NCBI GenBank assembly: GCA_951406725.2
Contig: OX597815.1
Span: 156,302,001-156,366,000 of the forward strand
Direction: 5' to 3'
Source: Octopus vulgaris
Taxonomy: Eukaryota
Length of the DNA stretch: 64,000 nt
Below the pieces are notes generated by a model. That model ran no database searches. It was not told where the DNA came from and saw only the letters and a program-made list of their open reading frames with translations. Each line of letters opens with the position of its first letter. Positions within the stretch are counted from its first letter, which is position 1. A program made the translations under genes and the position numbers. Of the stretch, positions 4,181 to 61,345 are shown one piece after another.

Positions 4181-4229
4181 AGGCACTGACGAGTGTTAAT
4201 GTAAACACGAAATTACTGCTGATCTGGTT
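4181..4229 (+). ncRNA. Type-I hammerhead ribozyme with intact core
   Basis: aggca-CUGACGA-gugUU(aaugua)AAcac-GAAA-uua(cugc)uga-UC-ugguu. Stem II is 5 bp perfect, stem III is 4 bp including a GU, and stem I has one G.G mismatch. Confidence 0.75.
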
Positions 4230-4255
4230 GTACATATATATATATATATATATAA

Positions 4256-4941
4256 AAGAAATATTGAATTTCTAAATCTCTCGTAGAGACATGAACGGTG
4301 GTGGGGCGATAGAATGGTTGTATACTGTCAATCTAACAAGAACGTGACTGTAGGGGGTACACCACCGCTGTATAGCCCTAGGAAGCATCGAACGCCTCCT
4401 GATAGCTTTGACACATTTTTTCCCTGTGTCCTTCTCTTCGTATATGTATATAAGGACACAGGGAAAAAATGTGTCAAAGCTATCAGGAGGCGTTCGATGC
4501 TTCCTAGGGCTATACAGCGGTGGTGTACCCCCTACAGTCACGTTCTTGTTAGATTGACAGTATACAACCACTCTATCGCCCCACCACCGTACATGTCTCT
4601 ACGAGAGATTTAGAAATTCAATATTTCTTATTTTGATAATCAGTGAATAGACTTCACTGAGTTTACATATATACAATTACGAAGTCGAGGCAAATATCAC
4701 CAGCTGACCGGTGTCTGCTACTCTAAACCGATGAAGGACAATGATCCTGAAACACGGTGTCCCTAGATGCAGTTCCGGCGGCCGGGGGTGTTTGTCTCCC
4801 CTTCGTATATGTATATAAGGACACAGGGAAAAAATGTGTCATAGCTATCAGGAGGCGTTCGATGCTTCCTAGGGCTATACAGCGGTGGTGTACCCCCTAC
4901 TGTCACGTTCTTGTTAGATTGACAGTATACAACCATTCTAT
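4256..4941. mobile_element. Inverted plus partial-tandem repeat array carrying a degenerate HHR (Penelope pseudo-LTR / retrozyme-like)
   Basis: Arms 4256-4433 and 4452-4629 are reverse complements (178 bp, 2 mismatches, 18-nt loop). 4436-4576 is repeated directly at 4801-4941 (period 365). HHR-like motif at 4722-4767. Flanked by (TA)n on both sides. Confidence 0.75.
4722..4767 (+). ncRNA. Degenerate type-I hammerhead motif (U4>C)
   Basis: ucua-aa-CCGAUGA-agga(caauga)uccu-GAAA-ca(cgg)ug-UC-cc-uaga. Stems II and III pair; the proximal part of stem I is mismatched. Confidence 0.6.
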
Positions 4942-4944
4942 ATA

Positions 4945-4990
<46 letters not shown>

Positions 4991-5163
4991 CATACATACA
5001 TATATATAACTGAAAAAATGGCGGCGTGGACTTCCACCTCGGCATCCGACACTCGGAGTTTTTTATGGCTACCGAATAATTGTCACATATTACATTTACA
5101 TATAAATTGCTCTATTTACATAATACCGAGTTCTCTTTCATTCTTTTATTGTCTTACTACATA

Positions 5164-5220
<57 letters not shown>

Positions 5221-6586
5221 GTACATACATACATACATACATACATACATACATACATACATACATACATACATACATACATACATACATAGAGAGATAG
5301 TGGGGGAGAAGCAGAGGGAGCAAGAGAGAAAGGGAGAGCTCAGTATGATTGATTCAAACCCGGCACATACGTAATTTTATCTAAACCCAGAGTGTCAACA
5401 GCCAAATTCAACTGTACCTATGTTTAAATATTCGAATTCAGAATATAAAAGAACATAACTCCCACAAGAGATAGTGTTGTATATTGTATTTCCACCATTA
5501 CATTGGTCCTCTATATCGTCTCCTGCGCCATAAGAGCTGCGGATAAACAACCAGACTCGTTATTTTTACAGTATTCCCTCTATTTTTATCAACAGATTTT
5601 TACACATGCACACACACAGTCATAACTTTGATAACTTAGAAAACTTAGATATGTTTCGACCAAAGATTGGTCCAGGCCATGTCTAACTTAATAGCACCAC
5701 CTGATAGGATTATTCGAATCCTGTTTAAGTCAAGTTTTGTTCAAGTAGTGAGTTCTTGTTGGGTGAGTTGTATCCAATTATGGGTGGCTTATCCCGTAAG
5801 AGATAATGTTCTATATTGTATATCTATCGTTGCAATTGTCCTCTACTTCGTTCTCATGCTCCATAAGAGCTGCGGAGAAACATACCGACTGTTATTTTTA
5901 CAGTATTCCCTCTAATTATATCAATAGATTTTTAATGCATCGTGGCATCTATTTTCAACCACATAGCTAAGACTAAAATACCTATAATATGGACACAGTG
6001 CGACCGAAGTGTTTGTAACAAAAATACGAACTAGTATCACATTGCACATTTTCCCCAACTTCTGTGTTCATACAAGCAGACATTAAGGCAAAGGAAATAT
6101 TCGATCACGCGCAGACCTATACACAATCACATACACACACACTCACACGCACACACACACACACACACACTTCTATATTATGGCACTCAATACATTCCAT
6201 TATAAATTCGTTTGTCTCATTTAAGTATTTTTGCTTCGTCGTATCATTGTATCGTCCAAATGGATTAGCTTTTCTCGTCATAAAAGCAAACATTTAACGT
6301 TTTTCCTGTTTTTCTATGTTTTTTTGAAGAGAAAAATCTCAAAATATTTCACAACGCTGAACGGCCACAAATAGTGAAATATAAAATGTTAGAGAAATAT
6401 TTAATTGTAGACTACTTGAAATCTTTACAAAATAACCTCTATTGATATAGCCGAAAATAAACACGAATCAATAACGACCAAATTACAACATGCTTTATTC
6501 ATCAACACACGGCTCCGGTATATTTTGTTATAAAATCTATTCACTTATTAAGGGGTTTATTTTCGATTTTAATCTCATCTGACCTA

Positions 6587-7129: not shown

Positions 7130-8070
7130 TGCGGGGGTCGTTAGAGCATCGGAGAAAATGTCTTGCACTGTATGTTCCGATGCTTTTACAATGTGAATTG
7201 AAATACTACCGGGGTATTTTATCATTTTGTGTTTGATAAAATAAAATACATATGAAGAACTAGTGTAGATGGTATCAACTAGTTTTCGATTCACGAAATT
7301 GCTGATCTTCTGCCTAAATAGGAAACCATTGTCATTATCATTGCTTCAAATACAACCGAGGTCTACATTGTCTTTCATCCTTTTGGGGGTCAATAGAATA
7401 AGGTACTAGTGGAGTTCTGGGATGGATGCAATTGACTTACCTTTACCCCTGAATTTGCTGGCCTTTTACCAAACTTATTATTGCTGTTTTTCTTTTATAT
7501 TCTTTGTTTTAGTGTAGAGGATATAAAATCGAATAGAATCCAGAGTATTAAGTGAAACAAGATGTAATATCACTTAGTCATTTTCGCCTGTTCCACATTT
7601 CGCTTTCGTTTCCCACGTGAAATATGCCAATCATTTTAAGAATAGAAAATGTACTTGGTTCGAGAAATGGCTAATGACTCTAGGCGAATTTAAAATTGTA
7701 TTTGAATCATGAGTTTTCTAAGGACGCTTTATGCAAGTAACTATACTCTACTTTTTAATTTTTTCTCTTGGACCCTTGGACTCATAAGGCCGGTTGCCCA
7801 GTTTCCAAAGCATAAGTGTGATTAAGGTCACATTCCCTCAGAACAGGAAGCCGGTTCTTTGTACGTTCAACCTAGCAATTTTGAGAAGAGGACAATTCGT
7901 TTACATCGAACCCAATAATGGATTGGTACATTATTTTATCGATCTCGAAGGAATGAACAAGAAAAGTTGACCTCAGTGGTATCTGAACTCGGATTGTAAG
8001 GAGCCAGAAAAAATGCCTCTCAGCATTTTATCCGACACGATAACGATTTTGCCATCTCGTTGCTTTATTA
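7130..8070. mobile_element. Cluster of old family-B SINE fragments (about 7130-7330 +, 7350-7480 +, 7870-8070 -)
   Basis: Degenerate matches to the ttgcctttcatcctttcggggtcgat...aagtaccag core of the intact copy at 61841-62082. Confidence 0.6.
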
Positions 8071-31502: not shown

Positions 31503-31568
31503 TTAGGGTCTGACGAGACGTATGTAAAACTAAGCGCTTTACGGACACGAAATCCTGGATAACCCTGG
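31503..31568 (+). ncRNA. Type-I hammerhead with intact core
   Basis: uuagggu-CUGACGA-gacguauguaaa(acuaagcgc)uuuacggacac-GAAA-ucc(u)gga-UA-acccugg. Stem I is 7 bp (2 GU); the base of stem II is partly mismatched. Confidence 0.7.
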
Positions 31569-56562: not shown

Positions 56563-56619
56563 TAAGACTAAGAGTTTCGGATACCGGGGCTGAAGTCTGC
56601 TCCGGCATTTCATCAGTTA
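56563..56619 (-). ncRNA. Type-I hammerhead with intact core
   Basis: Minus strand reads uaa-CUGAUGA-aaugccggagc(agacuuca)gccccgguaucc-GAAA-cu(cuu)ag-UC-uua. Confidence 0.65.
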
Positions 56620-60480: not shown

Positions 60481-61288
60481 CAAAGCTCGTTTTCTCCAGC
60501 GTTCACTACTTCACATCGTCTTGGTTTAAAAACTCTCACCGTTTGATTTTACTGTTTTGTCCTCACTGTCCTGTTTTCATTACTACTTTCGCCACCCTCT
60601 GCAAAAAATCCCAAATCTTATTTAACTTTCTTTGCGGGAAAGACTGTTTTAACGAAGTTGCGTTTTCTCCTTACCTTCGTATTGCGGAGTAGATAAAACA
60701 GGGGACAACTGATAAAGGGAACGTTCTTTATGTTGGGTGTCTTGTTTCTCTGTTTTATTTTTCGTTGTTCGAAAATAAGTTCGTTTTCTATTTTCTTATG
60801 TTCTCGTGTCTCATTTTGTCAACGTTTTTTGACGCCCTGTACCCATATATCCATGTATATATACATATATGTAGGTATGTACATATATGTATGTATATAT
60901 GCATATATTTATGTATTAATTATATTATTATATGATCGAAAGTCACGCTTCCTTTTTCACCCTCTCCAAAAGATCCCAAATTTTATTTAATTTGCTTTGC
61001 GTGAAGGACTGTTTTAACGAATTCCAGTCTTGTCCTTACCTTCGTAACACGAAGTAGATAAAAGAGAGGACAATTGATGAAGGGAGTGTCCTTTATGTTG
61101 CATGTCTCGTTTCTCTGTTTGATCTTTCGTTGTTCGAAAACAGTTCGTTTTTCTGTTTTTGTATTTTATGTTCGCGTGTCTCAATTTGTCTGGGATTTTT
61201 TATATCCTCTACCCATATATGTATGTATATATACATATATATGTAGGTATGTACATATATGTATATATACATATATTCAGATATTATT

Positions 61289-61290
<2 letters not shown>
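59860..61290. mobile_element. Three copies of a 350-430-bp element: one inverted (59860-60250) and two tandem (60485-60915, 60950-61290)
   Basis: Shared blocks ccttaccttcgt...gacaactgatraagggra...ctttatgttgcatgtctcgtttctctg...catatatgtaggtatgtacatat. Confidence 0.8.

Positions 61291-61345
<55 letters not shown>

Follow-up and report, generated by a model that had tools for sequence, protein, structure and literature searches.

How did a 365-bp repeat with a single hammerhead ribozyme, joined to an inverted part of itself and set between runs of TA, come to stand at positions 4256–4941 of a 64,000-nt stretch of Octopus vulgaris DNA (hereafter the window; assembly GCA_951406725.2, contig OX597815.1, 156,302,001–156,366,000, forward strand), and which enzyme wrote it there? 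We consider it highly probable that the segment arose when a non-coding repeat with a hammerhead, an animal retrozyme, inserted once, leaving ends that carry the footprint of a Penelope-like element (PLE). A Neptune-like Penelope protein with reverse transcriptase (RT) and GIY-YIG domains likely wrote it in trans. Throughout, published work is cited from excerpts. Window positions 4577–4941 are numbered q1–365; E1 is a 3' end at q365 and E2 a 3' end at q55 of the next unit, the spacing being 55 nt. The insertion and its flanks are composed as follows.

4234–4255, no strand: left (TA)n target run, read from the sequence.
4256–4308, minus strand: 55-nt Penelope-type tail (unit positions 1–53), end E2 of the inverted arm, assigned by sequence comparison and the family's ends.
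4309–4444, minus strand: inverted arm, unit positions 230–365.
4436–4576, plus strand: 5'-truncated first unit, positions 225–365, overlapping the inverted arm by 9 nt at 4436–4444.
4577–4941, plus strand: one complete 365-bp unit, positions 1–365, with the fixed end E1 at 4941.
4639–4644, plus strand: TCAGT, upstream of the ATC at 4696 by 56 nt, a candidate motif of a putative small nuclear RNA (snRNA)-type promoter.
4693–4709, plus strand: empty target site of Tx1-like cassettes that hold only open reading frame (ORF) 1; predicted transcription start near 4696.
4715–4772, plus strand: type I hammerhead with distal stem I 4715–4718/4769–4772, U4C core and short near-palindromic stem III.
4942–5008, no strand: right (TA)n/(TACA)n target run.

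The tandem repeat described in the initial annotation of this DNA was confirmed: 4436–4576 and 4801–4941 align without gaps at a period of 365, with 138 of 141 positions identical (BLASTN E 9e-67), and the three mismatches fall at 4477/4842, 4536/4901 and 4571/4936. The inverted left arm (4256–4444) shares a 9-nt overlap with the direct arm, and TA repeats adjoin both outer ends. At 4477 and 4536 the left arm agrees with the first copy, the allele at 4536 being rare. The annotation had built an argument on the third site (aaccaTtc), where the tandem copy matches the inverted arm. It does match, yet the C at 4571 is private to the window copy (the family has 182 T, 1 C and 1 A), and the site is uninformative.

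The 365-bp unit is a dispersed young family. An exact 22-mer of the unit gave 295 matches and the reversed control 0, at least 89 matches were obtained in a DNA search in which the best 40 of 2458 candidates were scored, and family copies differ from the majority sequence by 3.1% on average. The retrozyme-like character that had been proposed is borne out by a dispersed, multicopy, non-coding unit with a tandem period of 365 bp, one type I hammerhead per unit and no RT attached; an ORF for RT plus GIY-YIG was found neither in the window copy nor in register with units at the fetched loci. The unit is also covered by contigs of presumed-RNA sequencing runs, which cannot show ends, strand, level or circles.

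Insertion ends were read in two sets. Set A comprised 27 best-hit insertions and is biased toward long copies; L013, L023 and L030 were removed as repeats of L010, L019 and L024. The L024/L030 pair is one insertion present twice, 8 kb apart and inverted, that is, a segmental inverted duplication. Set B comprised 61 insertions among the first 100 listed of the 295 pattern matches, leaves out four other places along with those that set A covers, and is biased in favour of copies in which the 3' half of the hammerhead is intact. The 3' ends lay at E1 or E2 in 46 of 52 arms of set A and 97 of 107 arms of set B (143/159 together), and these fixed ends adjoined TA runs in 31 of 46 and 74 of 97 cases, respectively. 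In both sets the 5' ends were scattered across the whole unit, with no pile-up at the predicted cleavage site (within 3 nt, 0/52 against 1.0 expected and 2/107 against 2.05 expected). Since the 3' ends are fixed at two sites and only the 5' ends vary, the copies are not circularly permuted, and the permutation of starting points predicted by the annotation has to be given up. A cluster of 5' ends at q211–240 in set A (13/52) was dismissed as partly a selection effect of the 499-nt query; this interval is flat in set B (11/107). L073 is a single case of an arm that stops at the predicted cleavage site, q186.

The inverted insertions follow a strict rule. Whenever both ends could be resolved, one arm ended at E1 and the other at E2 (18/18 in set A, 34/34 in set B). 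The same held for nine of ten inverted loci bearing the Tx1-like cassette considered below, the tenth, L120, being E1+E1, so that 61 of the 62 resolved inverted insertions in all sets have one arm of each kind. Seven further inverted insertions had one end at neither site.

A zero-spacer palindrome of this sort might also be produced by local tandem duplication with fold-back, or by an error of assembly. Zero-spacer palindromes can come from fold-back reads, and no contig of the sequencing runs spans the junction. However, private sites distinguish the two arms, each arm stops at a different one of the ends specific to the family, and dozens of loci show the layout with junctions that vary between them, which makes such an origin extremely improbable.

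The anatomy of the window copy is that of a PLE insertion. PLE insertions include partial tandems and an inverted 5'-truncated copy, favour (TA)n, and carry a tail of 30–40 bp, often at one end only (PMC8557442); the same anatomy has been described together with overlapping inverted junctions and trans-mobilisation of sequences lying between pseudo-long terminal repeats (pLTRs) (PMC3846280). In vitro, both target strands are cut and extended, and two internal RT start sites flank the tail (PMC11167929). An inverted arm that ends in a tail, here of 55 nt, belongs to the standard Penelope footprint and was made in the same event as the direct arm; it is not an added end, as had been supposed.

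On the grounds of co-occurrence and pLTR similarity, animal retrozymes have been proposed to be mobilised by PLEs (PMC7229834; 10.64898/2026.07.22.740005). The octopus genome yielded three young Penelope families whose ORFs are long and open; the label Neptune-like rests on a cysteine linker before GIY-YIG, with no tree behind it. The Neptune-like families of the L125 and L094 types have intact ORFs, two 3' ends about 56–58 nt apart and TA targets, and one tailed and one untailed arm were found in 5/5 readable inverted copies (four of the L125 type, one of the L094 type). The L094-type protein is without a Pfam match as a whole and is 60% identical to the L125-type RT. One locus, L026, links the two kinds of element directly: a 1.3-unit arm ending at E1 is joined, with a 3-nt overlap, to an inverted complete L125-type tail (98% over 64 nt), and the rule of one tail per insertion is thus obeyed across two different RNAs. 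In another single case, L125, a sibling hammerhead unit is fused within the inverted arm to an RT fragment of the L125-type family. Judged from its sequence, the 365-bp family is a non-autonomous Penelope-type retrozyme, and the likely identity of its partner enzyme rests on tail length, target and one chimera. Penelope ORFs stand beside units in L094, L017, L103, L104, L061 and L028, in each case on the far side of an end or a TA run, and were set aside as target-sharing neighbours. The literature searched held no report on octopus, Penelope and hammerhead together, by which absence from print is not established.

The unit might instead be the ordinary pLTR of an autonomous Penelope, its copies being the 5'-truncated inverted ends of that element. 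The anatomy is indeed identical to that of Penelope ends, and more families exist than the three examined, as other minimal hammerhead motifs indicate. Nevertheless, head-to-tail units, up to 3.4 of them, join directly with no ORF between; no RT ORF is joined to the unit in the 118 unit-bearing loci apart from the L026 tail; and, of ORFs, only the ORF1 of the Tx1-like cassette was found in register with a unit. We regard this explanation as quite improbable.

That cassette is 1.75 kb long, encodes a CCHC protein of 450 amino acids and no RT, and lies between q133 and q117 in L031 and L049 (2/61 insertions of set B) and in L016 (set A). Its exact junction pattern gave 10 matches and its protein 95. 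It ends in AATAAA, lies in a 12–17-bp duplication of window 4693–4709, stacks in tandem and also occurs without any unit. The protein is 26–33% identical to ORF1 of full long interspersed nuclear elements (LINEs) with an L1-like ORF2, in which Pfam recognised RVT_1, Exo_endo_phos and zf-RVT and whose best solved relative is L1 ORF2p (E 4e-66). Eleven of 20 LINE loci (L214, L215, L217, L218, L221–L227) end just before a sibling-unit hammerhead, three at the first base of U2 (Rfam), one inside an array and five at other sequences. Assignment to the Tx1 clade is putative, resting on domain content, the best PDB match (L1 ORF2p) and the U2 target, not on a tree. Known Tx1 targets include DNA transposons, LTR elements, U2 and microsatellites (PMC4494074); Tx1 targeting of hammerhead or Penelope repeats was not reported in the literature searched, which excludes subscription journals, Repbase and preprint supplements. 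Octopus bimaculoides was the sole source of database homologues for an associated protein, and the Atlas matches to the cassette protein, all below 0.9 and all CCHC proteins, serve as a lead only.

Composites of unit and cassette raise the question of whether the true element is a protein-coding, non-autonomous Penelope derivative, the unit plus a 1.75-kb gag-like ORF, with the 365-bp unit as its deletion product. Unit-ORF-unit composites do have Penelope ends and move whole, the inversion junction of L120 lies inside the cassette ORF, and diverged sibling units carry diverged cassettes. Against this stand the AATAAA end, the target duplication, the tandem stacking and the unit-free occurrences; moreover, the homology leads to ORF1 of LINEs with an apurinic endonuclease (APE) and RT that occupy the matching site in sibling units and U2 genes, and only 2 of the 61 set B insertions contain the cassette. 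A coding ancestor is thus quite improbable; the gag-like ORF was rejected as the retrozyme's own and taken for a Tx1-like passenger, and cassette-bearing copies appear to be secondary insertions.

The cassette site also bears on the putative promoter. Three U2 loci, with upstream sequences of two types, carry TCAGT 58 nt ahead of U2 +1; the window unit has it at -56, and by eye three sibling units have it at -57 to -58. As five letters chosen after the fact, the match is a weak indication. Several further Tx1-like arrangements were observed. Long head-to-tail chains of two ORF1-only cassette kinds, several ending in a full LINE, occur in L107–L116, L122 and L193–L198, with near-identical copies on different contigs. 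In L221 (2480–9901), a 362-bp sibling retrozyme with a U3-A8 core holds an intact Tx1-like LINE in a 17-bp duplication. The Tx1-like family is also present at other sites (L187 at 6351, L228, L229, L231, L232), and Rfam found no RNA family in L228–L232.

The hammerhead annotated at 4722–4767 is upheld in the following form: stem I 4722–4727/4762–4767, core 4728–4734 (CCGATGA), stem II 4735–4738/4745–4748, GAAA 4749–4752 and predicted cleavage after 4761. In an alignment of 14 units of about 350–365 bp each, from the window family and sibling families, 94.8% of the paired cells could pair, and 15 of 18 pairs, spread over all helices and including C3-G8/U3-A8, had changed on both sides. None of 500 shuffles was as high; slid controls reached 22–49%, a comparison that favours our structure because it was written from the same sequences. 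Searched both at the gathering score and with E values up to 10, Rfam gave no hammerhead match, the sole returns being sub-threshold look-alikes of hairpin type; the hammerhead call is based on motif and covariation. Single-strand folding of four hammerhead stretches was no better than that of shuffles (z 0.4 to 1.55), which is expected because the motif is of the dimer type.

The annotation had asked whether the consensus of the family would restore stem I and CUGAUGA. Stem I is restored (perfect in 103/115 segments), but the core is not: CCGAUGA (CCGATGA in the DNA) stands in 106 of 115 segments and CTGATGA in 2, U4 being present in 10 of 14 aligned sibling units. In the window copy, two private G-to-A changes at 4726–4727 break both stem I pairs beside the core, and stem I is predicted to form in family copies but not in this one. 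A near-palindromic stem III of such kind is said to need a second hammerhead (PMC4209133). With a broken stem I and only one hammerhead, the window copy is probably unable to release a monomer and is likely a dead end; it is a damaged, ordinary member of the octopus retrozyme family.

What, then, was the template? Set B arms contain no cleavage site in 34 cases, one in 69, two in 3 and three in 1, all unbroken, and the longest arm is 3.4 units. At common polymorphic sites, tandem units of the same insertion show 3.3 differences per kb and inverted ones 3.7, compared with 30 for units from separate loci, whereas rare differences are equal in the three comparisons (17.5, 14.7 and 16.9 per kb, respectively). 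This combination indicates that the units of one insertion began as one sequence, which fits a circle or a homogeneous multimer. Because arms read through one to three cleavage sites and the units of an insertion share alleles, the data are compatible with a single RNA, circular or multimeric, as the source of each copy. To that extent they agree with the earlier proposal, which put the copied length at about 1.4 units, but not with the randomly permuted junction that went with it.

From these results, a cycle may be suggested. Tandem donor arrays would be transcribed from an snRNA-type promoter just 5' of the hammerhead, and paired hammerheads would release a 365-nt monomer, maybe ligated to a circle, by analogy with other retrozymes. 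The Neptune-like protein would capture this RNA via the E1–E2 region, nick both strands of a TA run and prime two complementary DNAs (cDNAs), one at E1 and one at E2; the footprint of this step is plain to see, its chemistry presumed. Each cDNA would extend backwards beyond the unit boundary, stopping after a random length, and the two would then be joined head to head by microhomology, the outcome of which is seen in the sequences.

Whether the template is a circle or an uncleaved multimer is about evenly balanced. The same element and enzyme could use an uncleaved linear multimer from a few homogeneous donor arrays, with no circle and with the U4C ribozyme slow or vestigial. U4C is fixed in the family, an arm of 3.4 units is within reach of linear donors, and young donors also predict the sharing of alleles within insertions. 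Yet U4C is kept in relatives with compensated stems (L111, L096), where the changes in stems I and III suggest that the fold stayed under selection, and similar animal retrozyme units accumulate as circles (PMC7229834). We give the linear template somewhat less than an even chance. A doubtful elaboration of the cycle is a three-tier parasite, made up of the Neptune-like protein, a 365-nt circle kept closed by a deliberately slow U4C hammerhead, and ORF1-only Tx1-like cargo. The Penelope protein would prime two cDNAs 55 nt apart, sometimes taking its own RNA for the second arm, and the Tx1-like cassette would land at the transcription start of the retrozyme and then be spread as Penelope cargo.

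Several points weigh against a retrozyme processed by its own ribozyme and written by a Penelope protein. In an anole element, hammerhead cleavage is dispensable and unprocessed RNA is the main template (PMC11167929). U4C is a described natural variant that retains viroid infectivity, and its activity in vitro is reported to be considerably lowered (PMC3088659); eight of nine Xenopus retrozyme dimers remained uncleaved in vitro (10.64898/2026.07.22.740005). Two or more hammerheads occur in only 4 of the 107 set B arms. The L120 pair breaks the E1+E2 rule. The L026 chimera is one of 118 unit-bearing loci and might have arisen when a unit inserted where an older Penelope copy ended. Finally, no autonomous element with the unit as its pLTR was found: BLASTN of the unit had no significant match in 50 loci of two Penelope families or in 24 longer loci of three.

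Other repeats were noted in the window. Directly left of the insertion, 4181–4225 carries a minimal-type hammerhead motif with a CTGACGA core and a 5-bp stem II; it belongs to a different, older repeat (about 76–82% matches elsewhere, with a partial echo at 7292–7312). More hammerhead-core matches lie at 31510 and 39711 (plus strand) and at 56616 and 3409 (minus strand), and the 39711 type, which recurs in L093, L192 and L236, resembles the motif at the terminus of a further Penelope family. A second tandem pair of period 365 (82% matches) at 60593–61302 has no BLASTN similarity to the window unit, and a diverged direct repeat of period about 332 occupies 5460–5934.

The enzyme that spreads animal retrozymes, and the way in which PLEs form tandem, inverted and tailed insertions, are open in the literature as excerpted here. 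To these questions the octopus family brings a near-absolute rule, each start site being used once in 61/62 inverted copies. It also offers a candidate enzyme that can be named and whose ORFs are intact, an insertion of chimeric make-up, and a template that, at 365 nt, is short enough to assay in vitro. The fixed U4C core raises the question of whether a slowed ribozyme is kept to protect circles. If the three-tier arrangement is true, the short unit would be a minimal substrate for learning how Penelope tails, tandems and inversions form.

Among known systems, the non-LTR retrozymes of coral, mussel and axolotl (PMC7229834; 10.64898/2026.07.22.740005) come closest: both are non-coding units of 150–400 bp (350–390 bp in mussel) with one type I hammerhead each, a short palindromic stem III that should function as a dimer and low GC content, dispersed as monomers to short multimers, and PLE mobilisation has been proposed. 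The octopus family differs in its core fixed as U4C. Circles and cleavage have been shown in published animal retrozymes, whereas the octopus family is known here from sequence alone; conversely, insertion ends, the one-tail rule and a Penelope chimera were read in the octopus, whereas the retrozyme papers, as excerpted, argue from co-occurrence and pLTR similarity. Those accounts, in the portions drawn on, do not cover cephalopods, and that of PMC7229834 mentions neither octopus nor cephalopod.

With Neptune-type PLEs, which have a C-terminal GIY-YIG (PMC8557442, PMC3846280, PMC11167929, PMC4209133), the family shares the partial tandem, 5' truncation, inverted 5' copy with overlap, single-end tail, (TA)n targets and a hammerhead in the terminal repeat. 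In contrast to them, the octopus unit has no RT or endonuclease ORF, its tail is 55 nt against the 30–40 bp quoted, its hammerhead has a canonical 6-bp helix I and 4-bp helix II instead of the minimal form, and its sequence does not resemble the terminal repeats in any of the three families examined. The octopus cassette is best compared with Tx1-clade LINEs such as Tx1 in Tx1D, Keno in U2 and Tx1-Mar in Mariner-N4 (PMC4494074). The common features are an L1-like ORF2 of APE, RT and zinc finger, a CCHC ORF1, a fixed site with target duplication, tandem stacking and a sister lineage in U2. The target in the octopus, however, is a hammerhead repeat, entered 15–18 nt before the core (counted from the end of the duplication), and the passenger of this family has ORF1 only and appears to be carried as cargo by a Penelope-type reaction.
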